Source: Mytilus californianus (taxonomy: Eukaryota). Taken from it: a DNA stretch of 64,000 nucleotides. This document shows positions 3,796-51,050 of the stretch, in pieces. Each line of letters starts with the position of its first letter. Positions within the stretch are counted from its first letter, which is position 1. The position numbers were made by a program, and so were the translations under genes. The notes below the pieces were generated by a model, which did not search any database, had not been told where the DNA came from, and was given only the letters and a program-made list of their open reading frames with translations. The stretch spans positions 92,775,982-92,839,981 of the forward strand of contig NW_026262679.1 of assembly GCF_021869535.1 (NCBI RefSeq), in the 5' to 3' direction.

Positions 3796-3877
3796 GTATG
3801 TAGATTAATTATCTCAGGGCTAGTCTATTAGAATGAATGTGAAATGATAGAAAGGGAATATAAGAATAAGAAGATGT

Positions 3878-4050
3878 GGTATGATTCCCAATGAGTCAAC
3901 TCTCCACAAGAGACCAAATGACAAAAAAATTAACAAATATAGGTCACTGTACGGCCTTCAACAATGAGCAAAATCCATACCGCATAGTCAGCTATAAAAA
4001 GCCCCGAAATGTAAAACAATTCAAACGAGAAAAAACTAAGTTTATTTGTG
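3878..4050 (+). mobile_element. SINE-like repeat, head-only copy in a WD40-gene intron
   Basis: 'gtggtatgattcccaatgagtcaactctccacaagagaccaaatgac...ggccttcaacaatgagcaaaatccataccgcatagtcagctataaaaagcccc'. Confidence 0.65.
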
Positions 4051-4423: not shown

Positions 4424-4592
4424 ATATCCTGCATTGACTTGGCAGCAAGCTATCAATGAGCCTGACGCATCTAGAGTTCACAAGGATGCTATTGATAGTG
4501 GAGAGGTGACTAAGAGTCAAGGATACATGTCATGGAATAACAAACCAAACACAACTGATCCATGTTATATGACCATCAGTAATCTGCCTCAG
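4424..4592 (+). CDS. WD40-repeat gene exon: YPALTWQQAINEPDASRVHKDAIDSGEVTKSQGYMSWNNKPNTTDPCYMTISNLPQ
   Basis: Acceptor tttcAG at 4422-4423 and donor GTAATG at 4593. It lies inside track ORF 4407-4697. Confidence 0.8.
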
Positions 4593-4975
4593 GTAATGTT
4601 AAACTGGGCTATTGACCTTTTTATGCCCCACCTAGGGGCATTATATTTTCGGTCTATGTGTCTGTCCATATATTTTTTGTCTAGGAAGTTAATATAAGAT
4701 TATTAAACATTAGATAAAACTCAAAAGTTACTTTTAAGTAGAATTAAATGCAAGGTCTAACACGTGTATTTATTATCACATTTTTCGCAAGAGCTGCAAA
4801 TCAGAGCTTCCTGAAATTTTGCGTCAAGCATGTTTTGAGTAATCATTTGATAATTTGTGTACTCAGTCATTAGGGTCTATCAGTGACATTTAAATTGTTT
4901 AGTTAATTGTCAAAGGAAATTGAAGTCCTGTACAGGTGATTATCAATTATATGAATTTGTGATCTCTCCTCAGAG

Positions 4976-6757
4976 TTTTTATATGACCGCAAAAATTTTT
5001 GCGGTCGTATATTGGTATGACGTTGGCGTCATCGTCGTCGTTGTTGTCTTCGTCCTGCGTCATCCGAAGACACATTGGTTTTCGCACTCTAACTTTAGTT
5101 TAAGTGAATGGATCTCTATGAAATTTTACCATAAGGTTCAATACCACAAAAAGAAGGTTGGGATTGATTTTGGGGGTTATGGTACTAACAGTTAAGGAAT
5201 TAGGGGCCAAAAAGGGGCCAAAAATAAGCATTTTTGTAACTTCCAGACAAAACTTGTGTGTTAGTGTATGGATCTCTCTGACATTGTACCACAAGGTTCC
5301 ATATCACAAAGGGAATGCTGGGATTGATTTTGGGGGTAATTGCCTCAAAATATTAGGAATTAGGGGCCAAAAAAGGGGCAAAAAACAAGCATTTTTCTAG
5401 TTTCATGACAATAACTTGTGTGAAAGTGTATCCATCTTTCTGAAATTGTACTACAAGGTTCCATATCACAAAGGGAAAGCTGGGTTTGAGTTTGGGGGTA
5501 ATTGCCCGAAACGTTTAGGAATAAGGGGCCAAAAAGGGGCCAAAAATAAGCATTTTTCTAGTTTCCAGACAATAACTTGTGTTCAAGTGTATGGATCTCT
5601 CTGAAATTGTACTGCAAGGTACCATACCACAAAGGGAAGGCTGGGATTGAGTTTGGGGGTGATGAATCATAAGGGGGTTCAAAAAATTGGGGGGGGGGGG
5701 ATTTTTTTTTTTTCCTTTTTTTTTTCTTTTAAAATTTTCCATTTTAAGTTGGTTATTTCTGATTTATATTTAAAAGCAAATAACAATGATATGGTAGGAG
5801 ATACACACCAAACAGGATGTGTAAATTATTATATAATAAGTATTGTGCAATAGCAAGAAATTTTCAATTGCACAGTATTGCACAATAGCAAGAAATCTTC
5901 AATTGCACAGTATTGCGCAATAGCAAGAAATCTTTAATTGCACAGTATTGCGCAATAGCAAGAAATATCCAATAGCACAATATTGCGCAATAGCAAGAAA
6001 TTGTCAATTGTGCAGTATTGCGCAAAAGAAGATACTTCGTATAAATTGCTTATTTCTTGACCAATTTCAATGGGGTTTTATTCTTGAATTCTTGGGGTTC
6101 TTTAATATGCTGAATCTAACCGTGTATTAAGTTTTTGGATTTTGGGCCCCATTTTTAAATTGGTCCACATTGAGGTCCAAAGGGTCCAAAATTAAACTAA
6201 GTTTGATTTCATCAAAAATTGAATTCTTAGGGTTCTTTGATATGCTGAATCTAAACATGTATTTAGATTTTTGATTATGGGCCCAGTTTTCAAGTTGGTC
6301 CAAATCGGGGTCCAAAATTAAACTTTGTTTGATTTCAACAAAAATTGAATATATGGGGTTATTTGATATGCTGAATCTAACCATGTATTTAGATTTTTGA
6401 TTTTTGGGCCCCGTTATCATTTTTGTCCACATTGAGGTCAAAAGGGTCCAAAATTAAACTTTGTTTGATTTCATCAAAAATTGAATTCTTGGGGTTCTTT
6501 GATATGCTGAATCTAACCATGTATTTAGATTTTGGATATTGGACCATAATAGGTGAATGTCCAATTTAAAATTTTTAAGTTCTTAGACCACATTCATTCT
6601 GTGTCAGAAACCTATGCTGTGTCAAATATTTAATCACAATCCAAATTCAGAGCTGTATCAAGCTTGAATGTTGTGTCCATACTTGCCCCAACTGTTCAGG
6701 GTTCGACCCCTGCGGTCGTATCAAGCTGCGCCCTGCGGAGCATTTTATTTTTTATTT
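4976..6757 (+). mobile_element. Composite non-autonomous element, family A, copy 1. Its parts in order: hairpin head, GTC-rich microsatellite, roughly 146-bp satellite in 4 units, G/T homopolymer, 35-bp repeat array, roughly 135-bp satellite in about 4 units, conserved tail.
   Basis: Head palindrome 'gaccgcaaaaatttttgcggtcgtata'. The tail reads '...ccccaactgttcagggttcgacccctgcggtcgtatcaagctgcgccctgcggagcattttatt'. It shares the same ordered modules with 12493-14585 and 25882-29300. Confidence 0.8.
5843..6035. repeat. 35-bp tandem repeat (about 6 units), each unit near-palindromic. The same array occurs at 13388-13610 and 26793-27020.
   Basis: 'tattgcgcaatagcaagaaatcttcaattgcacag' is repeated directly with no spacers. 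Confidence 0.85.
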
Positions 6758-6778
6758 GTATATTATTTTTTTTAATAG

Positions 6779-6874
6779 CCAGTGACTTGTGTAGCTGTAT
6801 CCAAAGATAGCAGATACTTTGCCTGTGGTGGAATGGACTGTATGGTCAGACTGTATGATTTCAATACAGGAAAG
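6779..6874 (+). CDS. WD40-repeat gene exon, first clear WD repeat: PVTCVAVSKDSRYFACGGMDCMVRLYDFNTGK
   Basis: Acceptor ttaatAG at 6777-6778 and donor GTAAAT at 6875. It is 32 codons long and in phase 0. Confidence 0.8.
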
Positions 6875-7230
6875 GTAAATAAGGTTCTGTTAAAATGAAT
6901 AAAAGGTGCTGTGAGGTATACATCAGTGAGGAAATAACAAAAAACACCCAATAAAAAACCAGAAGACATCTTTATTGATAACATATGGTCTTCAACAATA
7001 TGTAAGTCTCTCTACAATATGCCAAGCTCAAACTAGTCCTGTGTCTAGAAAACTACCAAATTTTCTGGACTGTAAATCTATGAGGTGGATAGGTGGAAGG
7101 GTTGATTTTTTTTTGGCCAGAATCCTGGAAAAATCTTACGACAGGTCAAAGTGACGGATAAGTTAAGGGTCCAAAATGTATCCACTGATAAGTTTTGGTA
7201 AGTATAAGCTCAAGAAAGAATGTATTTTAT

Positions 7231-8112
7231 TAGTCCCCTACCCACGAAGTTGAAAAGGACTTATGGTTTGCACTCTGTCCGAGTGTCTGTCTGTCTGTCC
7301 ATCAGTCAGTCCGGCAAATCAGTTTTCCACACTTTTTTTCTTCATGCTTGAAGATATTGATTTGATATTTGGTATATAGTTTTATCATGACTAGTTACAG
7401 ATCAAGTTCAAATTTTGTTCCGGTCTGATGATTTTGTGCAGAGTTATGGTCCTTGGACTTAGGAAATTCACGCAAGTAAAAGTTTTCCACACTTTTTTTT
7501 GTCATGCTTAAAGATATTGATTTGATATTTGGTATATAGTTTTATCATGACTAGTTACAGATCAAGGTCGAATTTTGTTCTGGTCTGATGATTTTATGCT
7601 GAGTTATGGTCCTTGGACTTAAAAAATTCACGCAAGTTATCAGTTTTCTGCACTTTTTTTGTCATGCTTAAAGGTATTAATTTGATTTTTGGTATATAGT
7701 TTTATCATGACTAGTTACAGATCAAGTTCAAATATTGTTGCGGTCTGATGATTTCGAGCAGAGTTATGGTCCTTGGACTTAAAAAAATTCAAGAAAGTAA
7801 ACAGTTTTCCGCATTTTTTTTCAACATGCTTGAAGATATTGATTTGATATTTGGTATATAGTTTTACCATGACAAGTTACAGATCAAGTTCAAATTTGGT
7901 TCAGTTCGGATGATTTTGTTTGGCAGAGTTATGGTCCTTGAACTTAGAAAATTCACTCAAATAATCTGTTTTCCACACTTTTTTTTGTTATGCTTGAACA
8001 TGTTGAAGATATTGATTTGATATTTGTTATAAAGTTTACACCATGACAAGTTATAGATCAAGTTAAAATTTTGTCCAAGTACAATGGATTTTTAACCGGA
8101 AGGGGACTATGT
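7231..8112 (+). mobile_element. TIR-flanked element carrying a GTC-rich microsatellite and an internal tandem array of about 125 bp in about 6 units
   Basis: The TIR is 'tagtcccctaccc' at 7231 and 'ggaaggggacta' at 8098, with a possible TA target duplication. The internal unit is 'cagttttccacactttttttgtcatgcttaaagatattgatttgatatttggtatatagttttatcatgactagttacagatcaag...'. Confidence 0.65.
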
Positions 8113-8488
8113 ATTGCCATGCAATACTCTCAGAATGCTTGTTCTATTTAAAATGCAATACTCTTAAATTTACGACTTTCAAGATAATATTCTGTTTGCA
8201 AAATAAAGCCGCAGTTACTTTGTATATGATCAGGTTAGCCATAATGCAAAATCTAAATTGCTTTCCCCATAATGTGCCGCAATTCATACTGTTTAAAACA
8301 TTTGTCATCTGTTTAGGACATCATATTATTTTAATTTGATTTATTTGTTTTGGGGGATTTTTTTGTTGTTTTCCAATCTCTCCATACATTTATATGCTTA
8401 TTTTTCTAGGCAATGCATACGTTTAATAGAACATGTATCTATTAATTTCAACCTTTAGAAGACATACTACTTACTTTATTGTTTTTAG

Positions 8489-12023: not shown

Positions 12024-12492
12024 GTATGTATTGCATTGGATATTTAAGGATGTATTTCCATGTTTATAGGAATCTTGTAAAAACATAAACCAGATATTCA
12101 AGGGAATGGAAACATAATTAAAACATTGTGGGGGTATTTTAGATAATTTTGAAGACTTCTTTTACATTAGGGGTCCCTTAATTTAAGGTTTAGGGCAGGG
12201 CTTCCAAAATTATTTTTAGCCAGCCGGACATTTTATATATTATCCTGATTTTAATCCCTTAAGACTAAATAAATAAAAGGCAATTATGGTAATCAGTTGC
12301 CGAGTTGGCCATCCGAATGATTGACATTAAAAAAAAACCGATATTAAACTTTCTTTGATTCAAATTCGAAGTTCTGACATAAACTGTTAAATTGGCAGTG
12401 CATCATTTGAAGTGTGCAACATCAGCGTACTTATATCTGCTTAGACTCTTTATTTGTGCAAAATAACGTTGTCAAAAACTTTACTTTCGTTT

Positions 12493-12545
12493 TTATACGA
12501 CCGCAAAAATTAAAAATTTTTTGGTCGTATATTGGTATGACGTTG

Positions 12546-12577
<32 letters not shown>

Positions 12578-14585
12578 CGGCGTCGTCCGGCGTCGTCCGA
12601 AGACACATTGGTTTTCGCACTCTAACTTTAGTTTAAGTGAATGGATCTCCATGAAATTTCACCATAAGGTTCAATACCACAAAAGGAAGGTTGGGATTGA
12701 TTTTGGGGGTTATGGTACCAACAGTTAAGGAATTAGGGGCCAAAAAGGGGCCAAAAATAAGCATTTTTGTAACTTTCAGACAATAACTTGTGTGTAAGTG
12801 TATGGATCTCTCTGACATGTACCACAAGGTTCCATATCACAAAGGGAAGGCTGTAATTGATTTTGGGGGTAATTGCTTCAAAATTTTAGGAATTAGGGGC
12901 CAAAAAAGGGGCAAAAAACAAGCATTTTTCTAGTTTCATGACAATAACTTGTGTGTAAGTGTTTGGATATTTCTGAAATTGTACTACAAGGTTCCATATC
13001 ACAAAGGGAAAGCTGGAATTGAGTTTGGGGGTAATTGCCCGAAACGTTTAGGAATTGGGGGCCAAAAAGGGGCCAAAAATAAGCATTTTTCTAGTTTCCA
13101 GACAATAACTTGTGTTCAAGTGTATGGATCTCTCTGAAATTGTACTGCAAGGTACCATACCACAAAGGGAAGGCTGGGATTGAGTTTGGGGGTGATGAAT
13201 CATAAGGGGGTTCAAAAAATTGGGGGGGGGGATTTTTTTTTTTTTTTTTTTTCTTTTTTTCCTTTTTTTTTTCTTTTAAAATTTTCCATTTAAAGTTGGT
13301 TATTTCTGATTTATATTTAAAAGCAAATAATAATGATATGGTAGGAGATACACACCAAACAGGATGTGTAAATTATTATATAATAAGTATTGTGCAATAG
13401 CAAGAAATTTTCAATTGCACAGTATTGCACAATAGCAAGAAATCTTCAATTGCACAGTATTGCGCAATAGCAAGAAATCTTCAATTTAACAGTATTGCGC
13501 AATAGCAAGAAATATCCAATAGCACAATATTGCGCAATAGCAAGAAATTGTCAATTGTACAGTATTGCGCAATAGCAAGAAATATTCAATTGCACAGTAT
13601 TGTGCAAAAGAAGATACTTCGTATAAATTGCTTATTTCTTGATCAATTTCAATGGGGTTTTATTCTTGAATTCTTGGGGTTCTTTAATATGCTGAATCTA
13701 ACCGTGTATTAAGTTTTTGGATTTTGGGCCCCGTTTTTAAATTGGTCCACATTGAGGTCCAAAGGGTCCAAAATTAAACTTTGTTTGATTTCAACAAAAA
13801 TTGAATATATGGGGTTCTTTGATATGCTGAATCTAAACATGTATTTAGATTTTAGATTTTTGGCCCAGTTTTCAAGTTGGTCCAAATTGGGGTCCAAAAT
13901 TAAACTTCGTTTGATTTCAACAAAAATTGAATATATGGGGTTCTTTGATATGCTGAATCTTACCATGTATTTAGATTTTTTATTTGTGGGCCCGCTATCA
14001 AATTGGTTCATATTGAGGTCAAAAGGGTCCAAAATTAAACTTTGTTTGATTTCATCAAAAATTGAATTATTGGGGTTCTTTGATATGCCAAATCTAACTG
14101 TGTTTTTAGATTTTTAATTTAGGGTCCCGTTTTTTAAATTTGTCTACATTAAGGTCCAAAGGGTCCAAAATTAAACTTAGTTTGATTTTAACAAAAATTG
14201 AATTCTTCGGGTACTTTGATATGCTGAATCTAAACATGTGTTTAGATTTTTGATTATGGGACCAGTTTTCAAGTTTGTCCAAGTTGGGGTCCAAAATTAA
14301 ACTTTGTTTGATTTCAACAAAAATTGAATATATGGGGTTCTTTGATATGCTGAATCTAACCATGTATTTTGATTTTGGACATTGGACCATAATAGGTAAA
14401 TTAAAAAAATTGAAGTTCTTAGACCACATTCTTTCTGTGTCAGAAACCTATGCTGTGTCAAATATTTAATCACAATCCAAATTCAGAGCTGTATCAAGCT
14501 TGAATGTTGTGTCCATACTTGCCCCAACTGTTCAGGGTTCGACCTCTGCGGTCGTATCAAGCTGCGCCCAGCGAAGCATTTTATT
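12493..14585 (+). mobile_element. Composite element family A, copy 2. It has (GTC)12, 4 units of the 146-bp repeat, a 35-bp array and about 6 units of the 135-bp satellite.
   Basis: Head 'tatacgaccgcaaaaattaaaaattttttggtcgtata' is a perfect 9-bp-arm hairpin. The tail reads '...gcggtcgtatcaagctgcgcccagcgaagcattttatt'. Confidence 0.8.
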
Positions 14586-15439: not shown

Positions 15440-16440
15440 TTTATGTCGAGCCTTCGACTTTAGTCGAAAAAGCAAGGCATAGCGATCCTACATTCCGTCG
15501 GCGTCGTTGTCGTCGGCGGCTTCCACAAATATTCACTCTGTGGTTAAAGTTTTTGAAATTTTAATAACTTTCTTATACTATCCTGGATTTCTACCAAACT
15601 TGGACAGAAGCTTGTTTATGATCATAAGATAGTATCCAGAAGTAAATTTTGTAAAAATAAAATTCCATTTTTTCCGTATTTTACTTATAAATGGACTTAG
15701 TTTTTCTGCCGGGAAATATTACATTCACTCTGTGGTTACAGTTTTTAAAATTTTAATAACTTTCTTAAACTATCCTGGGTTTGTACCAAACTTGGACAGA
15801 AGCTTGTTTATGATCATAAGATAGTATCTAGAAGTAAATTTTGTAAAAAAATAAATCCATTTTTTCCTTATTTTACTTTTAAATGGACTTAGATTTTCTG
15901 CTTGGAAACAACACATTCACTCTGTGGTTAAAAGTTTTTAAAATTTTGATAACTTTCTTATACTATTTTGGATTTGTACCAAACTTGGACAGAAGCTTGT
16001 TTATGATCAAAAGCTAGTATCTAGAAGGAAATTTTGTAAAAAAATAAATCCATTTTTTTCGTATTTTACTTTTAAATGGACTTAGATTTTCTGCCAGGAA
16101 ACAACATATTCACTCTGTGGTTAAAGTTTTTAAAATTTTAATAACTTTCTTATACTATTTTGGATTTGTACCAAACTTGGACAGAAGCTTGTTTATGATC
16201 AAATGCTAGTATCTAGAAGGAAATTTTGTTTTTTTCCAGTTAACATTACATTCAGTCTACAGTTAAAGTTTTTAAACATTTATTAGATTCATAAACTATC
16301 CTGGATTTTTACCAAACTTGGGCAGAAGCTTCCTACAATCAAAAGATAGTATCAAGAGGAATATTTTTATTGATTTACTTCCTCGTTTTTGTTGAGCCTG
16401 CGATTAACAGAAAAAGTAGGCGAGACACTGGGTTCCGCGG
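15440..16440 (+). mobile_element. Composite element with head 'tgtcgagccttcgactttagtcgaaaaagca', a (GTCG/GGCG) microsatellite, a tandem array of about 185 bp in about 5 units, and a tail 'ttgttgagcctgcgattaacagaaaaagtaggcgagac' that partly repeats the head
   Basis: The unit '...cattcactctgtggttaaagtttttaaaattttaataactttcttatactat..tggatttgtaccaaacttggacagaagcttgtttatgatca.aag.tagtatctagaag.aaattttgtaaaaaaataaatccattttttc.tattttacttttaaatggacttagattttctgcc.ggaaa' is repeated head-to-tail. Confidence 0.65.
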
Positions 16441-17197
16441 AACCCTTACGAATTTTTGGTTATTGTTTTTCAGAGGATGATGCAACAGTCAAATTATATT
16501 TAAATATGGTATCGGGTCTGCAAAATGTGCATTTTCTCCCATTTTTCTCCTCAAATGCATGAATTTATATTCAGACTACCCCTTAACAGTGCCTATCCAG
16601 GATTTTGAGGATAGGGGGCATAATTGTGCATAATGGTAGAAAAACAGGTGAGCGTAGTGATTAAAAAATGTTTTGATGATTTTATGCCACAAATTTTTTT
16701 CCAGTCAAAGTGGTTCACCTTCTACAACCTCCTGAGTCTGCCAATGCTTAATATACAGAAAAGTTGCAAGGGCTAAATGGCAACTTCCTTGAACATTTTC
16801 ATTAGGAAACAGTAAAGATGTATTTATGCCTTTTAAAAAGCTGGACTGATTACAAGGAAGAGGTCATTCATTTGAAAATGGTGCTATTTCAATCAAGGTT
16901 AAGAAGGTTACATACTGTCAACTCTAATTTGTATATAACACTGACCTATAATCATATATTTAGACTCAATCCAATTATTATTAAGACAATTACTAATGAT
17001 TACTCAAATCCATTGAATTATTGAATAGTTTGTGACGTAATTAGAATAAACTTTTGAATGATCACATGAAAATAGTACATTTTATGAACTTTTTGGTAGA
17101 ATAATTAAAATTTCTTGTAGAATTATAACAAGTCTGCACTTGTTTGAAATTAAAATTTAGATACTAGTTACTAGTCATATAAATTTTCTTCTTTCAG

Positions 17198-21419: not shown

Positions 21420-22139
21420 GTAAGTTTTACTGAAACTGTGATATAATTTGTTTCTTGAAGCTTTAGCAAGTTACTTGGACTTTTTTTTAAAGTTTCATAG
21501 ACATTTTACAATTAATGTATAGAGTTATTATCTGCCTTGCAACATATTTTCAGAAAGGATAAATAAAAATATCGGCTGAGTTTCCAAAACAAATAGTTGC
21601 CAGATAGTAACTTGAGTTGCTTTGCATGAATAGGAGTGAAACTTTATACAAATTGAAGACATGGTGAAGTGGAAGAAGCTTAACAATTTTTGGGGTCAAT
21701 AGGTCTATATTCAGTGCCAACTTTCCACTTATCTGTGACTGATTTTGCAGCAGAATTTAAAAAAAACTAAACATGAATAACAACCAGCATCCTTTTGTGT
21801 CATGTTTAAAATTTGAAAAAAAGATAATTAATGATTACATGCACTTAACAATCTGAGGAAAATTTGCATATAAATGTGTCTATTTTTCGTAGAATACTAC
21901 TTTTAAAAGTGTCTGTATAACTATACACAAGCTAACATCTAGATAGCGAAAATTGACGTGTGATTGAAAAAAACATATTTCTTAAATTTCTATTTTTTTG
22001 TAAATCAATGTACTTTACTAATGATTATTTTGCCATAGTTAGATGTTGAAAAGCTATAAAGTTGTATTATCCATAAATATTTTATATATCTTTTATATTA
22101 TAAATTTTTCACCTGCATCTGTATTAAATATAAAATAAG

Positions 22140-22290
22140 GAAACGTGGTATGATTGCCATTGAGACAACTATCCACCAGAGACCAAATGATGTGGACGAA
22201 AGCATCTATAGGTCACCATACAGCCTTCCAATATGAGCAAAACCCATTAATATAGTAAGCTATAAAAGTTCAGTGGACAAAATCAATATA
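22140..22290 (+). mobile_element. SINE-like repeat, head-only copy in a WD40-gene intron
   Basis: 'gtggtatgattgccattgagacaactatccaccagagaccaaatgatg...'. Confidence 0.65.
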
Positions 22291-24624: not shown

Positions 24625-25350
24625 GTAAATATTTTAACACTACTGTTTGTCCAGGGATCTCAAAAAAGCTTTCTTTCAAAATTCAAGAATCTTTGCGTTC
24701 ATTTATTATTGAGATTGTTGCACAATGAGCAACAGTGTGTGGTTGGTTATTGTGGTTTCAGGAAATGCTGAAGACAAAAAATGCCACCATAGTTTAAAAT
24801 ACAAGTTTTAATTTTTGCGAAAACTAATCCTGTTGCACTTTTTGCAATTATCAAAACATTACAAAAATGTCTGTGTTAACAGTATTGTACTATAAATAAC
24901 AAACAAGATAAAAAGAATAGTATAGTACTTTTAAATTTCATTTAGGTATAAATATTTATTCACTTTGTTATCAGAAATATTTTTTCTTCAATTCTTTGCA
25001 AACTGCATTTTTCAATCATAACAATCGATTGTTTTAAGGCACTGAAATATGTAGGCATAAATATAGATGTTGTCATGACACACGTGCAGGCAATATTATT
25101 ATAAAGATATAAAGATCAATTGAAATTAATTAATACTAAATTTCATTGAAACCACTTTATTGTGTCACCTGGCAGTGTCCAGCTGGGGTGATTCAGGGAT
25201 TTCACCTGTAGTAGTCTTGTTTCAGCATTTGTGTCACATTTTAATCCAATTCTCATTGAAAACTGTTAAACAGAATCCTTCAAACTTGCACACATTTCTC
25301 TACATGACTTGAAGTTGTAATGAATATCAATTTGCCATTTTTTTTTAAAG

Positions 25351-25499
25351 ATGCAAACACATCCTGGGCAGATATGGTAGAATCAGCAGAGGCTGCTAAG
25401 AAGGCAAAGAAATCCAAACGTCCAGGTGTGAGGATGGATGATGTACTTGTAGCTACTTGTGGAGATGACGGTACAGTCAGGGTCTGGCAACCATTGCAG
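25351..25499 (+). CDS. WD40-repeat gene exon: ANTSWADMVESAEAAKKAKKSKRPGVRMDDVLVATCGDDGTVRVWQPLQ
   Basis: Acceptor tttaaAG at 25349-25350 and donor GTAAAA at 25500. Confidence 0.85.
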
Positions 25500-25881: not shown

Positions 25882-25957
25882 GTCCTTTTTATACGACCGC
25901 AAAAATTGAAAATTTTTTGGTCGTATATTGGTATGACGTTGGCATCGTCGTCGTCGA

Positions 25958-25988
<31 letters not shown>

Positions 25989-28900
25989 TGGCGTCGTCCG
26001 AAGACACATTGGTTTTCGCACTCTAACTTTAGTTAAAGTGAATGGATCTCCATGAAATTTTACCATAAGGTTCAATACCACGAAAGGAAGGTTGGGATTG
26101 ATTTTGGGGGTTATGGTACCAACAGTTAAGGAATTAGGGGCCAAAAAGGGGCCAAAAATAAGCATTTTTGTAACTTCCAGACAATAACTTGTGTGTAAGT
26201 GTATGGATCTCTCTGACATTGTACCACAAGGTTCCATATCACAAAGGGAAGGCTGTAATTGATTTTGGGGGTAATTGCCTCAAAATTTTAGGAATTAGGG
26301 GCCAAAAAAGGGGCAAAAAACAAGCATTTTTCTAGTTTCATGACAATAACTTGTGTGTAAGTGTTTGGATATTTCTGAAATTGTACTACAAGGTTCCATA
26401 TCACAAAGGGAAAGCTGGAATTGAGTTTGGGGGTAATTGCCCGAAACGTTTAGGAATTGGGGGCCAAAAAGGGGCCAAAAATAAGCATTTTTCTAGTTTC
26501 CAGACAATAACTTGTGTTCAAGTGTATGGATCTCTCTGAAATTGTACTGCAAGGTACCATACCACAAAGGGAAGGCTGGGATTGAGTTTGGGGGTGATGA
26601 ATCATAAGGGGGTTCAAAAAATTTGGGGGGGGATTTTTTTTTTTCTTTTTTTTTCTTTTTTTCCTTTTTTTTTTTCTTTTAAAATTTTCCATTTTAAGTT
26701 GGTTATTTCTGATTAATATTTAAAAGCAAATAATAATGATATGGTAGGAGATACACACCAAACAGGATGTGTAAATTATTATATAATAAGTATTGTGCAA
26801 TAGCAAGAAATTTTCAATTGCACAGTATTGCACAATAGCAAGAAATCTTCAATTGCACAGTATTGCGCAATAGCAAGAAATCTTCAATTGCACAGTATTG
26901 CGCAATAGCAAGAAATATCCAATAGCACAATATTGTGCAATAGCAAGAAATTGTCAATTGTACAGTATTGCACAATAGCAAGAAATATTCAATTGCACAG
27001 TATTGTGCAAAAGAAGATACTTCGTATAAATTGCTTATTTCTTGATCCATTTCAATGGGGTTTTATTCTTGAATTCTTGGGTATTTAATATGCTGAATCT
27101 AACCGTGTATTAAGTTTTTGGATTTTGGGCCCCGTTTTTAAATTGGTCCACATTGAGGTCCAAAGGGTCCAAAATTTAACTTTGTTTGATTTCATCAAAA
27201 ATTGAATTATTGGGGTTCTTTGATATGCCGAATCTAACCGTGTATTTAGATTCTTAATTTTTGGTTCCGTTTTCAAATTGGTCTACATTAAGGTCAGAAG
27301 GGTCCAAAATTAAACTTAGTTTGATTTTAACAAAAATTGAATTTTTAGGGTTCTTTGATATGCTGAATCTAAACATGTATTTAGATTTTTGATTATGGGC
27401 CCAGTTTTCAAGTTGGTCCAAATCGGGGTCCAAAATTTAACTTTGTTTGATTTCAACAAAAATTGAATATATGGGGTTCTTTGATATGCTGAATCTAACC
27501 ATGTATTTAGATTTTTGATTTTTGGGCCCCGTTATCAACTTTGTCCACATTGAGGTCAAAAGGGTCCAAAATTAAACTTTGTTTGATTTCATCAAAAATT
27601 GAATTCTTGGGGTTCTTTGATATGCTGAATCTAACCATGTATTTAGATTTTTTATTTGTGGACCCGCTATCAAATTGGTTCATATTGAGGTCAAAAGGGT
27701 CCAAAATTAAACTTTGTTTGATTTCATCAAAAATTGAATTATTGGGGTTCTTTGATATGCCAAATCTAACCGTGTATTTAGATTTTTAATTTTGGGTCCC
27801 GTTTTTAAATTGGTCTACATTAAGGTCCAAAGGGTCCAAAATTAAACTTAGTTTAATTTTAACAAAAATTGAATTCTTGGGGTTCTTTGATATGCTGAAT
27901 CTAAACATGTGTTTAGATTTTTGATTATGGGCCCAGTTTTCAAGTTGGTCCAAGTTGGGGTCCAAAATTAAACTTTGTTTTATTTCAACAAAAATTGAAT
28001 ATATGGGGTTCTTTGATATGCTGAATCTAAACATGTATTTAGATTTTAGATTTTTGGCCCAGTTTTCAAGTTGGTCCAAGTTGGGGTCCAAAATTAAACT
28101 TTGTTTGATTTCAACAAAAATTGAATATATGGGGTTCTTTGATATGCTGAATCTAACCATGTATTTAGATTTTTTATTTGTGGGCCCGCTATCAAATTGG
28201 TTCATATTGAGGTCAAAAGGGTCCAAAATTAAACTTTGTTTGATTTCATCAAAAATTTCATTATTGGAGTTCTTTGATATGCCAAATCTAACCGTGTATT
28301 TAGATTTTTAATTTTGGGTCCCGTTTTTTAAATTGGTCTACATTAAGGTCCAAAGGGTCCAAAATTAAACTTAGTTTGATTTTAAGAAAAATTGAATTTT
28401 TGGGGTTCTTTGATATGCTGAATCTAAACATGTGTTTAGATTTTTGATTATGGGACCAGTTTTCAAGTTGGTCAAAGGTGGGGTCCAAAATTAAACTTTG
28501 TTTGATTTCAACAAAAATTGAATATATGGGGTTCTTTGATATGCTGAATCTAAACATGTATTTAGATTTTAGATTTTTGGCCCAGTTTTCAAGTTGGTCC
28601 AAATTGGGGTCCAAAATTAAACTTTGTTTGATTTCAACAAAAATTGAATATATGGGGTTCTTTGATATGCTGAATCTAACCATGTATTTAGATTTTTTAT
28701 TTTGTGGGCCCTCTATCAAATTGGTTCATATTGAGGTCAAAAGGGTCCAAAATTAAACTTTGTTTGATTTCATCAAAAATTGAATTATTGGGGTTCTTTG
28801 ATATGTCAAATCTAACCGTGTTTTAAGATTTTTAATTTTGGGTCCCGTTTTTTAAATTGGTCTACATTAAGGTCCAAAGGGTCCAAAATTAAACTTAGTT

Positions 28901-29300
28901 TGATTTTAACAAAAATTGAATTCTTGGGGTACTTTGATATGCTGAATCTAAACATGTGTTTAGATTTTTGATTATGGGACCAGTTTTCAAGTTTGTCCAA
29001 GTTGGGGTCCAAAATTAAACTTTGATTGATTTCAACAAAAATTGAATATATGGGGTTCTTTGATATGCTGAATCTAACCATGTATTTTGATTTTGGACTT
29101 TGGACCATAATAGGTAAATTAAAAAAATTGAAGTTCTTAGACCACATTCTTTCTGTGTCAGAAACCTATGCTGTGTCAAATATTTAATCACAATCCAAAT
29201 TCAGAGCTGTATCAAGCTTGAATGTTGTGTCCATACTTGCCCCAACTGTTCAGGGTTCGACCTCTGCGGTCGTATCAAGCTGCGCCCAGCGAAGCATTTT
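25882..29300 (+). mobile_element. Composite element family A, copy 3. Its 135-bp satellite array is expanded to about 16 units (27040-29110).
   Basis: It has the same head, (GTC)n, 146-bp repeats, G/T tract, 35-bp repeats and tail as copies 1 and 2. Only the 135-bp array length differs. Confidence 0.8.
27040..29110. repeat. Tandem satellite with a period of about 135 bp and about 16 units, internal to family-A copy 3
   Basis: Unit 'ttgaattcttggggttctttgatatgctgaatctaaccatgtatttagattt..gggccc.gtttt.aaattggtc.acattgaggtccaaagggtccaaaattaaactttgtttgatttcatcaaaaa' recurs head-to-tail. The track ORFs on both strands here are artefacts. Confidence 0.85.
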
Positions 29301-29312
29301 ATTGTTTTTTAG

Positions 29313-29524
29313 GCTAATGAGCTTGCCAGTATGTCAGGACACGATGACAGAGTTCTCAGTGTATCATCTGACGCACAGGGAAAATTGTGTACAAGCAGTC
29401 TAGACAAGTCTGTCCGTCTGTGGGCTCCACAATTGTCAACAACAGCATCAGATACAGGACATAATGGATCAGTGACATTTGTCATTTCTATAGAAAATGG
29501 AGCAGGATTACTGACTGGAAGCAG
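29313..29524 (+). CDS. WD40-repeat gene exon: ANELASMSGHDDRVLSVSSDAQGKLCTSSLDKSVRLWAPQLSTTASDTGHNGSVTFVISIENGAGLLTGS
   Basis: Acceptor ttttttAG at 29311-29312, directly after the tail of a composite element, and donor GTATGA at 29525. Confidence 0.85.
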
Positions 29525-33677: not shown

Positions 33678-33894
33678 GTAAAGCTTACCAATTACATATT
33701 TTCTTATTTATCTGGACGCAGGTTCTAACAAGGATTGGTATGTTATCACACAAGAACAAATTTGATGTGTAAATCTTTGATTAGAATTTCCTGTTTGTCC
33801 AACATTTTTATTTTCTGCACAGATTTTTGGGAATGTGATAATAAACCTGTATAATTTTGTTCAGTTGCTTTTAAAATTAAACAAAGTTTTCTTT

Positions 33895-34495
33895 TTATGC
33901 CCCCATTGTAGCGGAGGGGCATTAAGTTTACCTAGCCATTGTCAACCTTGTCAGTCTGTTTTCTATTCTCTAACTTTAGTTTGCCTCAACGAAATGTTGT
34001 GAAACTCATACACAATGCTTATTACCACAAAACACGATCAAGTTTGAATTTTGGTGGCATCACTTATACTGTTTTAAAGTTATGCCCCTTTACAAAAGGA
34101 AAAATTGCTGAATTTTTTGTTTCCGTTCTCTAGCTTAAGTTTCCCTCAACCAAATGTTATGAAACTTATACACAATGCTTATTACCACATAATACAGATC
34201 AAGTTTAAATTTGGTGATGTTACTTTAACAGTTCCAGAGTTATGCCAGTTTACAAATGGAAAAATTGCTGAATTTTTTCGTTTCCGTTCTCTTACTTATG
34301 TTTACCTGAACTAAATGTTATGAAACTTATACACAATGCTTATTACTACAAAATACAGATCAAGTACAAATTTAGGTAGGATCACTTTTACCGTTCTTCA
34401 GTTATGTCCCTTTAAAACTTTATATGATATGCAAGCGGGGTCATCATCTGTGTTCCATGGACACATTCCCCATTTATTGTTTTCTATGGTATTCA
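33895..34495 (+). mobile_element. Composite element family B: head 'ttttatgcccc..gtagcggaggggcattaag' (hairpin), three units of about 165 bp, tail '...gggtcatcatctgtgttccatggacacattccccatttatt'
   Basis: Unit 'gtt..cgttctctaactttagtttgcctcaac.aaatgttatgaaact.atacacaatgcttattaccacaaaacacagatcaagtttgaattttggtggcatcactt.tac.gtt.t..agttatgcccctttacaaa.ggaaaaattgctgaattttttgtttcc'. Related copies occur at 42730-43760 and 60465-61090. Track ORFs 33939-34545 are artefacts. Confidence 0.7.
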
Positions 34496-34757: not shown

Positions 34758-36426
34758 GTAGGTATACAAATTTAAAAAGCATTCATGCTCAGAATAATAT
34801 TTTTCACTATTTATTTTTTATCCATCCAATCTGGGTCTATGTCATCACTCTGGATTTTAAGATGGTGAAGAAATCTGTACTATTTCTTCTGTTTCGAATT
34901 TTGTCAACTTAAAACTTGAAATTGACTCTTAGATATTGGCACACATCAAACTCATTTCATCAACTTTAAACAAATTAATGTCTTTCTTTACTTAATGCAA
35001 ATGTGTATATCAAGATTTTTGTCTGCCTCCATACCTCACAGAAAGACTAAAGTATGATTTGAAATAATGCACACAAATCTTCAAATCTTTCCATTTATAA
35101 TAGTGATTTCGATCACTTTAATTGTCATAAGTACTTAAGAAGACATACACAATTTCCTCAGAATTTTGGGAGCAGAGAGTTATAAAACAGTTTAAGGGTG
35201 ACAATTCGATCTGAGTTATTGCAAAAAAGAACAGTTGATATTTTTAAACTAAAGAAAGGTTTATTTTTTTGTTCATCCAAAACACTTTTCTGTATTTACC
35301 TTCATCAAAAATGCTTAAACCCAAACATAATTAAGCCAAAGATGTATAAATACCATAAAACGTGAGGAGCTTTATGACTAAAAAAGATCTTAATAATAGC
35401 AACACACATTGCTCAGTCAAATTTAATGTACCAAGCATTGAACTTTAGTAACTGATTTCTGTAAATGAATTGTCCTGATGACGTCTGCCTGCCAGGAGAA
35501 AGCATGTCGACTAAGTTCAATAAAAGTATTGTCAAATAAAGGTATTTTAAGTTTTGCAATAGTTTGCATTAAGGTATCCACTTTAGGAGACTCTATTGAA
35601 AGTAAACACAACAGAGTTAATTTAATATTTACGGAAATCATAAGATTAACATGCAATTATACCTTACTGGCTGTTGATCAAGTAATAACAGCCTTTGAAC
35701 AACTGTTTGAAAATAGACCCTAGTTGAAAAATGAATTTATAAGACAACATTGTCATATGATCAAAACAAAACTTGATGATGTATTGATTTACTAGCCTAG
35801 AAAAAGGACTGTGATCTTTGATGAGAAAAAAACAAGTTAATAGCTAATCTGAAACTGATCAACTAGTAAGAGACAGTCTCAAAATGAATCAATGGATCCA
35901 ATATGAACAAAAACCATCCACAGTATATAAATAGAGTGCTAGCTCAAGAACCTTTAAACTAGTGTTTCAAGATAGTTCATTCAAGGACCAAACTAGTCAC
36001 ACTCTAGATTGGTTGAGAAGCAAATTTAGATTAAATTTAAAACATCACTCTCTTTATCTGTAGTAGTCAAGTATCAAGAACCATAAATTATTATTAATTA
36101 CCATAGTATGCCATAAGAGTTTTCTTATTCTCCAAGAAAGCATTTTATGACCCTTTCACTTTCCTGATATATTCTTTTGCATAATCAATTTTTATTAAAC
36201 TAGAGTTTGACCCAGATTTCATGGTTCACTAGACATAGAAATGTAATAGTTCTTGCAAGGCGTGATGTCCTAGGAACACATTTTCTTGCTCATTAACTAT
36301 TTAATTACTGGTAAAGGGTATCATTGATATCAAGATCAAATTCTTTTCTTTTCTTTTATTTTTTAAAAAAATATTTAGTTTTTGTTTGTTTGTTTATTAC
36401 TGTATTTTGTTGACTTAAATTTCCAG

Positions 36427-36528
36427 GTGCATGGTGGTGCAGTGACAGCTGTTGATATGACAGATGATCTTATTTTTACTGCTTCTCATGATAGGACAGT
36501 CAAAGTGTGGAATAAAGATATGAAACAG
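36427..36528 (+). CDS. WD40-repeat gene exon: VHGGAVTAVDMTDDLIFTASHDRTVKVWNKDMKQ
   Basis: Acceptor tttccAG at 36425-36426 and donor GTAATT at 36529. It lies within track ORF 36382-36573. Confidence 0.85.
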
Positions 36529-36860
36529 GTAATTTTTATAATTAAGAGATACTATTTGAAGCAAATTTTGTAATGAAAATATTTTTTTACACTTTTCTGA
36601 ATTTTACTGATAAAATAGACTTAGTTTTTTGCAGTTAATATTTACATACAGTCTTGGAATAAATTTTTAAGACATAAATAACCTTCGTGATTTATGAAAC
36701 TTGGACAGAAGCTTCTTCAAGGTCAATTCTTCTTAACTAGGACAGGCTCATCTTTACACTGGAAACTCACTGGGCCTCCTGTTATTAATTTCTATCTCAA
36801 CTGAATATAAACTGTACTTGTTTGCATTTGTTAATAACTGATTTTATGATTCTGTTATAG

Positions 36861-41309: not shown

Positions 41310-41575
41310 GATGTATGTGCTGAATCTAACCATGTATTTAGATTTTGGATATTGGACCATAATAGGTAAATGTTCAAAATCAAATTTTTACGTTTTTTGA
41401 CCACATTCATTCTGTGTCAGAAACCTATGCTGTGTCAAATATTTAACAAAATATCCAAATTCAGAGCTGTATCAAGCTTGAATGTTGTGTCCATACTTGC
41501 CCCAACTGTTCAGAATTTTGACCTCTGCTGTTGTATCAAGCTGCACTCTGTGGAGCATTTCATCCTTTAAGTGTT
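41310..41575 (+). mobile_element. Truncated family-A element: one 135-bp unit plus tail only
   Basis: 'gctgaatctaaccatgtatttagattttggatattggaccataataggtaaatg...cagaaacctatgctgtgtcaaatattt...cagagctgtatcaagcttgaatgttgtgtccatacttgccccaactgttcag...' matches the 3' 250 bp of copies 1-3. Confidence 0.7.
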
Positions 41576-42729
41576 GATCAGATAAATATATATATATAAC
41601 TTATATGACCTTAGATTTAAACCTTGAATTTTTTCAAGGAATGCCAGTTTGAGTATGATCATATAAAAAACAACAGGACTCAGGTTATTTCATGATAAAT
41701 TTAATAACAATAAACCTACCCATTGAAAACAGAAACCAGCTATAACAGATATAATTATAATTATCACAATAAATAAGATGATTTCAACAAGTATGAAACT
41801 AAAACAATAATATATTTAGTATTCCTGATACTAAATTTATACATAAACAAGATACATGTATATATATATATATTCAGTTTATTAGAAAACAACACACATG
41901 TACTCGCTTATTAGAATGTTGATAGATTTTGTTAATTCATCTGTTTTAGTACCTATTCTTCTTGGTAAGTAGTATTTTCCTTTAAGTTGCCTGTAATATG
42001 AAAAATATTTACAGACAAATTACACATAATTAAAAAGACCTATTTTATACTTTATAACATTTCCAATTTAGGCCTTGCAGTCATAAAACTTTTGAGTATG
42101 ATTATCATACTCAGACTCAGAAATCAATCAATCAAAATACTAGATTTGGTTTTTCATGCACAATTTTATGACCATACACCTTCTCAGCTTGTACTAAACT
42201 GGATGAATGTATATGTCAAGTTGAAGCTGCTATCCTGTATGGAGAATCTGATTTAAGTGCAGCTTCTATTCATAATGTTTTAATCCAAGGAAAATATATT
42301 TTTATGGTTTTTCAAGCTGCTAGTACATTGTATATGTCATTTTGTGATTACAGTTCAAAAGCTTCTATACACTTTACACACTTGGGACAGTTGTTAAGGC
42401 ACAAATTGCTCAAAAGTTTTGAGTGTTTATTAAATAGCTACTATGTATTAAATGAAATGAATAAATGCTTTAAATTTATTGAGCCAGACAAGTTGCGACA
42501 AGCTAGTTTTTCAAAGTTATGAAATCAAAACATCATTATAAGATATGGCCCTATTAACCAGTTTCTGAGTACTCAACTCTAACCCTATTATTTTCAACAG
42601 TCAAAAAATGAAATAAACTGCACAACAAAAAATCATTCAAGAAAACTGAGGTAAGAAATTACAGTAGCACAATGAATGTATAAGCTATTATTTCTTTTGT
42701 TGTGGATTTGAAGTAGAAGAAACTAGGGT

Positions 42730-43760
42730 TTTTATGCCCCTGCCGTAGCGGAGGGGGCATTAAGTTTTACCCTTGTCCGTCTGTACGTACGTCCTTCCGT
42801 CCGTCTGTATGTCCCAAAGTTGGTTTCCGTTCTCTAACTTTAGTTTGCTTCAACCGAATGTTATGAAACTTATACAAAATGCTTATTACCACAAAACACA
42901 GATCAAGTTTGAATTTTGGTGGCATCACATTTACCATTGTTGAGTTATGCCCCTTTACAAATGAAAAAAAATGCTGAATTTTTTGTTTCCGTTTTCTAAC
43001 TTTAGTTTGCCTCAACCAAATGTTATTAAACTTACACAAAATGCTTATTTCCACAAAATACAGATCAAGTCTGAATTTTGGTGGTGTCACTTCAACCGTT
43101 GTTGAGTTATGCCCCTTTACAAATGAAAAAAATGCTGATTTTTTTGTTTCTGTTCTCTACCTTTAGTTTGCCTCAACCAATTTATTAAACTTATATAAAA
43201 TGCTTATTACCACAAAATACAGATCAAGTTAGAATTTTGGTGGTGTCACTTCAACTGTTCTGGAGTTATGCTCATTTACAAATGGAAAAATATGAATCTA
43301 ATATCTGTTCTAAAAATATCAATGATGTAATTGTTAAAATTATTTTTTTAAATTGAGTTATCTTCCTTTGTCCATAATTGTAGTTGAATCAACTACAATT
43401 ATGGACAAAATTAATTTTAACAATTACATCAACTACAACCAATGCTTTATACAATGCAATGTTCACTGGAAAAATTAAAACAATCTTTACCCTTCAGTGC
43501 TTACAAGCACTTTGATTAATGTTCTTCAGTGTTGTCCCTTTATAACCTTATATGATATTTTGTTTTCGTTCTCTAACTTAAGTTTGTCTCAACTAAATTT
43601 AATGAAATGTATATATAATGCTTATTAACACTTAACTCAGTTTAAGTTCAAATTTTGGAAGCGTCACTTTTACAGTTCTTGAGCTATGTCCCTTTATAAT
43701 GTTATATGCTAACGGGGGCATCATCTGTGTCCCTATGGACACATTCCCAATTTATTTTAT
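42730..43760 (+). mobile_element. Family B composite element copy. It has head, (GTCCGTCC/GTACGTAC) microsatellite and 3-4 units, and is interrupted at about 43300-43550 by a palindrome-bearing insertion before the last unit and tail.
   Basis: Head 'tttatgcccctgccgtagcggagggggcattaagttttacccttgtccgtctgtacgtacgtccttccgtccgtctgtatg'. The tail reads '...ggggcatcatctgtgtccctatggacacattcccaatttatt'. Confidence 0.65.
43335..43435. repeat. Near-perfect nested palindrome of about 100 bp (foldback or hairpin MITE) inside family-B copy 2
   Basis: 'gatgtaattgttaaaattat...tttgtccataattgtagttgaatcaactacaattatggacaaaattaattttaacaattacatc'. The inner 21-bp arms are perfect. Confidence 0.7.
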
Positions 43761-44400: not shown

Positions 44401-45444
44401 TGCATTATGTTAATTCTCAAATCACCAAGTTTTATAAAGCTATTGTTTATGGTTCAAAAAACCTTATCCAGAAACCTAAATGTTTTCACATGTGTGTTGT
44501 GTGTTTTGTGTTTTATGACATTACAAAAATATCATCACAATTTTGATCAAACCTTTAGTGGGCTAAGGCGTAGGAAAATGTTTTATGGATTTCAAAGTTT
44601 AAATATTAGTACACACAATGTCTTTAGATATTCAACATACCACAAAGCTTCTCTCTTCTGTTTCGTATTATTTGTAGTTCATTCTTCATCTTTAGTATCG
44701 AACACAATACATTTAGTTTTACCTGAAATTGACAGATGGATAAAAAATTGCAAAAAAAGGGCTTAAGTTTGTCCAGAGACCTATATACACATATATATGT
44801 CTCTGGTTTGTCTTTTATCAGCAAAAATATAAATCTAAAGAAAAGGTCGACTTACACTGATTTCATTTCGAGAATAGAAATCATATTTAAGATACTTACT
44901 ATTTTCTATAGAATGGAAATAAGATATAGACCTTTAAATTAAAGTTTTTTTCAAAAGGTTTTGTTCAATAATTTGAATAAATTTAGCATCAATCGACTCA
45001 ACAAAAATCTTACATCATATAAACAAGATGATTGATTTACGATATAAATCGCACATGTATCAACATATTATAACTAGCAAGTTCTAACTCTTAAAAATTG
45101 TCAGGTATAGGTCGGTACAATGTATTAGATTCAATATCGTTCATATGTTCAGAGACATATAATATAATAATTGTATTATATGTCTTTAATATTAGACTCA
45201 TCAAGAAAGATAAATCAACAATGGGATGCTGACCTCAAGACACTTTAGTAGTGTTAATACATTGTTATCTATATATAGAGAGAAGGGAAACTTCTACGTC
45301 ATTTGGTCTCTGTTGGAGATCTGTCTCATTGTCAATCATACCACAACTTCTTATACATTAATTTCAATAATAGGTGAATGACTGTAACGGAGACCAGAGG
45401 GTAGCGGTAGCTTCAGATGCGTTTAGTAGACGTAATTAAGGGGT

Positions 45445-47564: not shown

Positions 47565-47720
47565 GAGATGTGGTACGATTGCAAATGAGACAACTATCCA
47601 TCAGAGTCCAAATGCAAAGCGGATTAAAACAACTATAGGTCTCCGTACGGCCTTCAATAATGAGCAAAACCCATATCGGCGTATAGTCAGCTATATATAT
47701 AAAAGGACCAGGTATGACAA
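47565..47720 (+). mobile_element. SINE-like repeat, head-only copy
   Basis: 'gtggtacgattgcaaatgagacaactatccatcagagtccaaatgcaaagcgg...ggccttcaataatgagcaaaacccatatcgg'. Confidence 0.65.
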
Positions 47721-50584: not shown

Positions 50585-51050
50585 AGAAGATGTGGTATAA
50601 TTGCCAATGAGACAACTCTCCAGCAGAGACCAAATGTCATAGAAGTTAACAGCTATAGGCACCGTACGGTCTTCAACAATGCACAAAACCCATACCGCAT
50701 AGTTTGCTATAAAAGGCACCGAAATGACGAATGTAAAACAATTCAACCGATAAAACTAACGGCCTGATTTATGTACAAAATAATGAACGAAAAACGAATA
50801 TGATGTACAGTAACAAACGACAACCACTGAAATACAGGCTCCTGACTTGGGACACGCACATACAGAAAGTGGCGGGGTTAACAAGTTTGAAGGCGCCAAC
50901 CCTCCCCTAACATCGGACAGAGTTGTAACAGTACAACATAATAAAAAGCTATAAAAATCAGTTGAAAAGGGCTTAACTCATCAGATCGATACAAAGCAGA
51001 AATATATAAAAAAAACACAGACCGGACGGGCAGGGTACTTATACATCCCA
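50585..51050 (+). mobile_element. Full-length copy (about 470 bp) of a SINE-like, non-autonomous interspersed repeat. The head is 'gtggtatgattgccaatgagacaactctcca.cagagaccaaatg...' and the tail is '...cagaccggacgggcagggtacttatacatccc'.
   Basis: It is almost collinear with 51925-52400. Truncated copies occur at 3878-4050, 20270-20340, 22140-22290, 47565-47720, 49690-49950 (tail only), 55955-56100, 56215-56370 and 45290-45355 (minus strand). Track ORFs 3891-4079, 47476-47748, 50555-50767, 50564-50746 and 55966-56190 are artefacts of this repeat. Confidence 0.7.

Follow-up and report, generated by a model that had tools for sequence, protein, structure and literature searches.

A 64,000-nucleotide (nt) stretch of the Mytilus californianus genome (contig NW_026262679.1, positions 92,775,982 to 92,839,981, forward strand; hereafter the window) is AT-rich, with a GC content of ~32%, and carries on its + strand a predicted WD40-repeat gene in whose introns lie three full copies of a transposable element, family A. 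Two of the three copies end just upstream of predicted splice acceptors of this gene and in the gene's orientation, with 29 nt (6750–6778) between copy 1 and the exon at 6779 and 9 nt (29304–29312) between copy 3 and the exon at 29313. This two-tail pattern is real and above uniform chance, but it is not clearly beyond the target preference reported for the class to which family A belongs, the non-autonomous Helentrons (HINEs), and that preference together with modest luck explains it adequately. It is likely, in our judgement, that a taste for T-rich targets puts HINE insertions beside acceptors, which would make the pattern an ordinary outcome rather than a new mechanism.

Two family A tails beside predicted acceptors

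Self-BLAST of the window with the first element returned three full family A copies together with two fragments related to the tail. All five lie on the + strand, and the WD40 gene thus shares its strand with the three full copies. The full copies, with lengths in base pairs (bp), are:

4976–6749, + strand: family A copy 1, 1774 bp, delimited by self-BLAST and by head and tail alignments; ends TTTTTATATGACCGC (5') and GCATTTTATT (3'); tandem arrays of 161 bp (x3.5), 35 bp (x5.6) and 136 bp (x3.4)
12490–14585, + strand: family A copy 2, 2096 bp, inside a large intron
25886–29303, + strand: family A copy 3, 3418 bp, its 126–136-bp array grown to ~15 units

The three heads align from a common start, TTTTTATA(C/T)GACCGCAAAAATT..., and five aligned tails share the end ...CTGCGGTCGTATCAAGCTGCGCCC(A/T)GCG(A/G)AGCATTTTATT, after which they diverge completely and at once; all family A tails finish in ...GCATTTTATT. 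These alignments shift the boundaries given in an earlier reading of the DNA made from the letters only (the sequence-only reading). It had placed the end of copy 1 at about 6757, 21 bp from the acceptor, whereas the element ends at 6749, 29 nt away, and the 8 nt that follow, TTTTATTT, are flank resembling the element's own end. For copy 3 the adjacency to the exon at 29313 holds, with the end moved from about 29300 to 29303 and 9 nt (GTTTTTTAG) left between them. Copy 2 is in gene orientation and away from any exon, as had been noted (2612 nt separate it from the next predicted exon downstream, and the 3' flank, AAATCTAAAC, is not T-rich), and its start moves from 12493 to 12490.

The tails of copies 2 and 3 are 99.5% identical and that of copy 1 is 92% identical to both, which places copy 1 in a different subfamily; copies 2 and 3 look young by this measure. 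With unrelated flanks and different subfamilies, copies 1 and 3 are, on sequence grounds, independent insertions. The proposal that two independent insertions had come to lie in the same orientation just 5' of 3' splice sites on the + strand is thereby upheld.

The gene model was built on the + strand as a heuristic, splice-site and phase-aware chain through open segments. The resulting 25-exon model is phase-continuous and picks exactly 6779–6874 and 29313–29524. Both exons are open in one frame only, and in-frame TAGs at 6776–6778 and 29310–29312 hold the acceptor AG. The predicted junctions read ...ISNLPQ/PVTCVAVS... and ...VRVWQPLQ/ANELASMSGH... (slashes mark splice junctions here and below). 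The two predicted exons with their acceptors thus appear supported. Captured element cargo was considered as their origin and ruled out, the exons forming one continuous in-frame 25-exon gene. The predicted product is a multi-WD40 protein that matches WD40 families and Apaf-1-like proteins, with an Apaf-1-like region upstream of the repeats; its similarity to TEP1 propeller models is sub-threshold. The gene spans 350 to at least 36570 (+). The 25-exon model ends at 34757, and a further WD40-type open segment beyond it, at 36379–36570 (+; ...FTASHDRTVKVWNKD...), suggests that the gene extends past the model. The features around the two insertions are as follows:

4425–4592, + strand: exon upstream of copy 1, donor CAG/gtaatg at 4592; the model starts it at 4450, the reading frame supports 4425
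6750–6778, + strand: native intron remainder after copy 1, TTTTATTTGTATATTATTTTTTTTAATAG, with a T8 tract, A6754 and the AG at 6777–6778
6779–6874, + strand: WD40 exon, 32 codons, phase 0-0, PVTCVAVSKDSRYFACGGMDCMVRLYDFNTGK
25315–25499, + strand: exon upstream of copy 3, ending ...VRVWQPLQ, donor CAG/gtaaaa; acceptor uncertain, may be 25351
29295–29303, + strand: terminus of copy 3, CATTTTATT, with the candidate branch adenine A29301 and, putatively, the upstream part of the pyrimidine tract
29304–29312, + strand: native intron remainder after copy 3, GTTTTTTAG, with the acceptor AG at 29311–29312
29313–29524, + strand: WD40 exon, 212 nt, ANELASMSGHDDRV...LLTGS

T-rich targets, chance and the fate of the two acceptors

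Of the two explanations put forward in the sequence-only reading, that the element seeks T-rich sequence has become the better supported: it accords with the HINE architecture of family A (described in the next section), with published T-rich insertion and with the T enrichment of the 3' flanks reported below. Elements of the DINE-1/HINE type choose T-rich or TT sites and leave no target duplication, and the published targets (TT, WTT/TT and poly-T) place T residues around the element in a fixed orientation, so that the preference is strand-specific (PMC4067079, PMC2374699, PMC7492417). In the mechanism proposed here, a HINE would integrate without target duplication into DNA that is rich in T, not A, relative to the element. 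The pyrimidine tracts before acceptors are among the most T-rich sense-strand stretches of an intron; the odds for each insertion of falling just upstream of an acceptor would then be several-fold above those of a random intronic site, and an insertion that fell there would almost always point the same way as the gene. Of the seven HINE 3' ends counted in the gene, two would have landed upstream of acceptors in this way.

Chance models were computed on the gene with the three family A copies removed, counting as near an acceptor any site at most 30 nt upstream of a predicted one. The proportions of sites within this distance were:

All intronic sites: 3.0%
TT/TT sites: 8.2%
Sites with at least 7 T in the 10 nt of the 3' flank: 14.7%
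Sites with at least 12 T in the 20 nt around the site: 17.5%

T-rich sites are thus 2.7–5.8 times enriched within 30 nt of acceptors (8–17% versus 3%). Near acceptors, T-rich intervals outnumber A-rich ones by 156 to 7, which accounts for the sense orientation of the tails found there. Under the uniform model, the probability that at least two of the three family A copies end near acceptors is 0.003, and for two or more out of the gene's seven HINE 3' ends it is 0.017; the T-rich models raise these values to 0.02–0.08 and 0.10–0.35, respectively. In the window as a whole, the DNA 3' of 10 HINE tails (copies 1 and 3 included) has 48 T in 100 nt, where 34.9 are expected (P = 0.011).

Several observations weigh against target preference as the explanation. 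The 5' flanks have no T enrichment (39 T in 110 nt versus 38.4 expected), four of the 10 3' flanks (copy 2 and three others) are not T-rich, and once copies 1 and 3 are taken out the 3'-flank count drops to 34 T in 80 nt, a derived figure for which significance was not recomputed. The sample is very small, and the two cases were singled out post hoc. For family A by itself, even the T-rich models give just 0.02–0.08 for at least two of three. The comparison yielded no precise empty site, the introns of the six loci compared below being too diverged to align as far as the insertion point, with similarity starting 7–8 nt before the exon. Finally, that both exons are spliced as modelled is a prediction of a heuristic gene model.

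If T-rich targeting holds, nothing mechanistically new is involved and family A behaves like published HINE families. Its wider meaning would be that splice acceptors can become local hotspots of insertion through the target preference of a transposon, here in a HINE-dense invertebrate genome. A functional analogy is offered by Alu and L1 insertions in human NF1, where a T-rich target preference likewise makes acceptors local hotspots and four of 14 de novo Alu insertions struck the AG or pyrimidine tract of 3' splice sites, causing exon skipping (PMC3219598). The analogy does not extend to mechanism: Alu and L1 move by L1-endonuclease retrotransposition with target duplications, in both orientations and with documented exon skipping (PMC3219598), unlike the rolling-circle-type DNA transposition expected of the class of family A.

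The comparison of orthologous introns that the sequence-only reading had called for could be made for the exon at 29313 and shows an acceptor that the element did not create. This exon is encoded in contigs of other samples at 80% (loci L001 and L002) and 58% (L003–L006) amino-acid identity, and the cross-species similarity begins at the acceptor. No family A sequence is present in these six loci. In L001 and L003, the orthologous introns end in T tracts of their own, tgtttgttttttttttttcattttcag/GCTCAT and cattttttgagtattgtttgtttcag/GCAAAT. On this comparison the acceptor of exon 29313 is older than the insertion of copy 3: it is in use in two related taxa, each with a native T tract and neither with the element. 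No orthologue of exon 6779 was found, the contig matches from other samples covering exon 29313 only.

What the insertions mean for splicing differs between the two sites, and so does the standing of the other earlier proposal, that the tail serves as the polypyrimidine tract or branch region. The host introns measure 2186 nt (1774 nt of element) and 3813 nt (3418 nt of element); without the element they would be 412 and ~395 nt, and both have 383–386 nt of unrelated intron sequence upstream of the insertion. At copy 1 the element would be unneeded. A6754, a full match to the branch consensus yUnAy 25 nt from exon 6779 with no AG between, is native and not element-derived; because the 29 nt of native intron keep their own tract and this branch candidate, the insertion of copy 1 is probably neutral and the element probably not needed for splicing of exon 6779. 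At copy 3 the proposal gains ground by geometry, provided that the exon is still spliced. Every adenine within 70 nt upstream of exon 29313 is element-derived, and AG dinucleotides occur in the tail at 29278, 29288 and 29293. Within the AG-free zone, only the element-derived A29301, in TTTTATT and 12 nt from the exon, matches yUnAy in full. Because only 9 nt of native intron remain, splicing at this acceptor would have to draw its branch point and the upstream half of its tract from the element end ...GCGAAGCATTTTATT. The pyrimidine content over the last 30 nt of this junction is 0.60; other acceptors of the gene have 0.47–0.70. Two outcomes are thus conceivable: either the end of copy 3 supplies the branch point and half of the tract, or the allele splices poorly. 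At 9 nt from its acceptor, copy 3 is a natural test case for whether an element can stand in for the branch point and one half of the pyrimidine tract.

The second outcome, in which exon 29313 is used less or not at all because copy 3 interrupts the pyrimidine tract 9 nt before the acceptor, concerns the consequence of the insertion rather than its cause and is compatible with T-rich targeting. We take it seriously, though we hold it less likely than not. The original branch region has been moved 3.4 kb away, the tail brings competing AGs, the insertion looks young, skipping of the 212-nt exon would shift the frame, and the NF1 Alu insertions at 3' splice sites provide a precedent for exon skipping (PMC3219598). 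On the other side, the pyrimidine content of the junction lies inside the gene's range and the downstream reading frame is intact.

The first outcome leads to a more far-reaching reading, in which retention rather than targeting shapes the pattern: a copy would be preferentially tolerated or favoured when its T-rich, branch-like 3' end (CATTTTATT) takes the place of the pre-acceptor region, the tail acting as a portable splice-site module and so producing both the enrichment and the sense bias. That HINE 3' termini (stem-loop plus CATTT(T)ATT) are ready-made 3' splice-site modules, bringing a branch adenine and pyrimidines and making sense insertions tolerated, is improbable in our view, and the retention reading as a whole deserves no better odds. 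The element-derived adenines and the terminal TTTTATT of copy 3 would fit it, as would the openness of every exon in the 25-exon model, the low probability for family A by itself despite T-rich targeting, and a window-wide sense bias of HINEs that a T/A tract asymmetry of 1.1–1.2 fold does not account for. However, copy 1 needs nothing from the element, A29301 is unusually close to the exon for a branch point, the three tail AGs could compete as acceptors, and copy 3, with a tail nearly identical to that of copy 2, may be too young to have been tested by selection. Were the module reading true, HINE tails would be in excess upstream of acceptors genome-wide, beyond what T content predicts and almost exclusively in sense orientation, and splicing of exon 29313 would use a branch point provided by the element, A29301 or a position close to it.

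Pure coincidence, with effectively random intronic insertion and two copies falling near acceptors of originally short introns of ~400 nt, is less probable still. Only two cases are at hand, noticed post hoc; the host introns were indeed short before insertion (412 and 395 nt), and four other measured HINE tails in the gene lie 104–2612 nt from the next exon. Nevertheless, the uniform model allows 3.0% per insertion and returns the low probabilities given above before any factor for orientation is applied, and T-rich targeting is documented for the HINE family (PMC4067079, PMC2374699, PMC7492417). The suggestion that these introns, or their acceptors, arose from the element in the manner of introners can practically be dismissed: the elements do account for the greater part of each intron (1774 of 2186 and 3418 of 3813 nt), but unrelated sequence upstream and native acceptor sequence downstream persist in both, and for exon 29313 an introner origin is rejected, since L001 and L003, which lack the element, have the intron and its acceptor in the same place.

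Family A and related HINEs

The architecture of family A is that of a non-autonomous Helentron (HINE) with satellite arrays, of the DINE-1/Pearl/Cg_HINE type. The element starts with T5, followed by ATA(C/T)GACCGCA, an 11-nt 5' subterminal inverted repeat of the ATACGACCGCA type. In all three copies, the 3' subterminal repeat TGCGGTCGTAT, the reverse complement of the ATACGACCGCA type, begins 39 nt from the 3' end; it is followed by a stem-loop with the consensus GCTGCGC-CCW-GCGRAGC that finishes 8 nt from the element end. The 5' palindromes of the three copies (4980–5011, 12494–12531 and 25890–25927) have DNA-fold z values of -3.8 to -6.9. A (GTC)n microsatellite lies at about +58 to +115, and the interior holds three tandem arrays of 161, 35/70 and 126–136 bp. 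The terminal features of copies 1 and 3 are:

4980–5011, + strand: 5' subterminal inverted repeat of copy 1 with its adjacent complementary repeat, a palindrome of ATATGACCGCAAAAA and TTTTTGCGGTCGTATAT; DNA fold -12.2 kcal/mol, z = -6.9
6711–6721, + strand: 3' subterminal inverted repeat of copy 1, TGCGGTCGTAT
6725–6741, + strand: 3' stem-loop of copy 1, GCTGCGC-CCT-GCGGAGC, 8 nt before the element end; z = -3.65
29265–29275, + strand: 3' subterminal inverted repeat of copy 3, TGCGGTCGTAT
29279–29295, + strand: 3' stem-loop of copy 3, GCTGCGC-CCA-GCGAAGC; z = -2.9

The hallmarks of published HINEs are a 5' subterminal repeat a few nt from the end and its inverse 38–60 nt from the 3' end, with a short stem-loop past the 3' repeat, 8–35 nt from the end (PMC4067079, PMC2374699, PMC7492417). 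Family A matches this published layout and is a further member of a known element class. A canonical Helitron (5' TC, 3' CTRR, insertion between A and T) was considered and rejected, since family A begins TTTTTAT..., finishes ...CATTTTATT and carries subterminal inverted repeats instead. No direct repeat that would mark a target-site duplication was seen around the three copies, by inspection only. At the curated cut-off, Pfam matched none of the element's open reading frames, and neither Rfam nor tRNA searches gave a match; nor does the window contain an autonomous Helentron reading frame (Rep, helicase or endonuclease). A literature search with the exact array and terminus strings gave no match to a published element.

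The closest structural parallels are the bivalve HINEs, namely Cg_HINE of Crassostrea gigas, Pearl (CvA–CvE), MgE of Mytilus galloprovincialis and DTC84 of Donax trunculus (PMC7492417). Like these, family A carries on its left side a 5' subterminal inverted repeat, the complementary repeat and a GTC-type microsatellite; satellite-like arrays of ~160 bp, at times several, occupy the centre, and a short right flank is made up of a 3' inverted repeat and a palindrome. Like them also, it lacks target duplications and has copies inside gene introns (PMC7492417). The published elements occupy oligo-T insertion sites (PMC7492417); the ends of family A are T-flanked (T5...TTTTATT), and T enrichment in the HINE flanks of the window is confined to the 3' side, where 4 of 10 are not T-rich. 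Family A differs in having three distinct arrays (161, 35/70 and 126–136 bp), and the likeness is one of structure, no sequence identity having been shown. With Drosophila DINE-1/INE-1 and Metaseiulus HINE-Mo, family A shares subterminal inverted repeats starting TATAC..., a GTCY microsatellite, central repeats, a 3' stem-loop a few nt past the 3' repeat and intronic copies, which are frequent there too, the published targets of those elements being TT, WTT/TT or poly-T (PMC2374699, PMC4067079); as in HINE-Mo, the inverted repeat beside the 5' repeat makes a palindrome (PMC4067079). Those elements belong to another phylum, and no sequence homology is claimed. The papers on them report neither enrichment at splice acceptors nor an orientation bias relative to genes (PMC2374699, PMC4067079), and a search of the literature on intronic orientation bias of Helitrons or DINE-1 found nothing relevant.

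At least four further families in the window share the ends TTTTTAT plus palindrome and stem-loop plus CATTT(T)ATT. These and the additional family A relatives are:

33892–34478, 42729–43756 and 60457–61080, + strand: family B; 5' end TTTTTATGCCCCCGCCGTAGCGGAGGGGGCAT, then a GTCY microsatellite and 160-bp arrays; 3' end GGGGGCAT, stem-loop TGTGTCCCATGGACACA and TTCCCCATTTATT
About 7226–8149, + strand: family C; subterminal repeats TAGTCCCC and GGGGACTA, stem-loop GTATTGCCATGCAATAC, 160–192-bp arrays
About 15441–16457, with a second head from 63249 to the end of the window, + strand: family D; GTCGAGCC-type repeats, stem-loop GGGTTCCGCGGAACCC, 160–192-bp arrays
4618–4660, + strand: isolated B-like HINE head, TTTTTATGCCCCACCTAGGGGCAT and a GTCT-rich stretch
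59381–60374, + strand: complete family A relative of ~1 kb, TTTTTATACGCCCGTTTACGGGACGTAT ... GCAGTTTATT, corresponding to the tail fragment at ~60 kb
41315–41564: 5'-truncated family A-related copy, corresponding to the tail fragment at ~41 kb

The first family B copy ends 104 nt before a predicted exon at 34584. The family D tail at 16457, followed by ttattgtttttcag/AGGATG, was checked by hand as a third acceptor case and rejected, the required phase running into a stop codon; on the sequence, it shows that HINE tails also adjoin T-rich DNA (ttattgtttttcag) that is no acceptor. The isolated head at 4618 lies 25 nt downstream of the donor at 4592, in the same intron as copy 1, and no matching tail was found for it. 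The family A relative at 59381–60374 sits 82 nt upstream of the third family B copy, forming a small HINE cluster. Within copy 1, between the 161-bp and 35-bp arrays (5685–5730), a G11 run is followed by long T runs (ggggggggggggatttttttttttttcctttttttttt).

Beyond the window, a complete family B copy with the same ends occurs in another, unrelated sample (L009, 1–537; ENA ERZ27052906). A spurious open reading frame across the family B tail led to two short contigs, one of them this complete family B copy, too few for a target-site profile; the corresponding frame across the family A tail gave no candidate. An exact-pattern scan with the family A tail produced one chance match, in a bacterial thiolase gene of metagenome contigs, and none in prokaryotic genome or viral contigs, and a scan with the family B head produced none in genome or viral contigs.

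Strand bias and other features of the window

All 11 recognisable HINE heads lie on the + strand (4618, 4976, 7226, 12490, 15441, 25886, 33892, 42729, 59381, 60457 and 63249), and one weak head candidate lies on the - strand at 62182. Cg_HINEs, in contrast, are reported in both orientations (PMC7492417). Self-BLAST of the window gave 162 direct against 7 inverted repeat pairs; apart from one short pair, the inverted ones all trace to one reversed SINE-like copy at 45289–45365. Both identifiable genes, the WD40 gene and an amine oxidase gene, are also on the + strand. T-rich targeting does not explain the + bias away from acceptors, because intronic T tracts exceed A tracts just 1.1–1.2 fold. 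The window-wide orientation bias would be the more interesting lead, if it proves to be genome-wide. The remaining features are:

3857–4039, 20250, 22127–22267 and 47566–47695, + strand: SINE-like repeat of ~150 bp, core GATGTGGTATGATTGCCAATGAGACAACTATCCACCAGAGACCAAATG
50575–50755, 51915–52102, 55950–56087 and 56222–56365, + strand: further copies of the SINE-like repeat
45289–45365, - strand: reversed copy of the SINE-like repeat, the 8 other copies being on the + strand
54539–54784 and 57613–58551, + strand: flavin amine oxidase gene (Pfam PF01593, E = 5.7e-23)

The SINE-like repeat has no tRNA or Rfam match. The amine oxidase gene has an N-terminal FAD-binding exon and a 313-codon open segment, and is followed downstream by HINE copies that share its orientation. 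The SINE-like repeat also splits a family B array in a contig from another sample (L008, 465–556).

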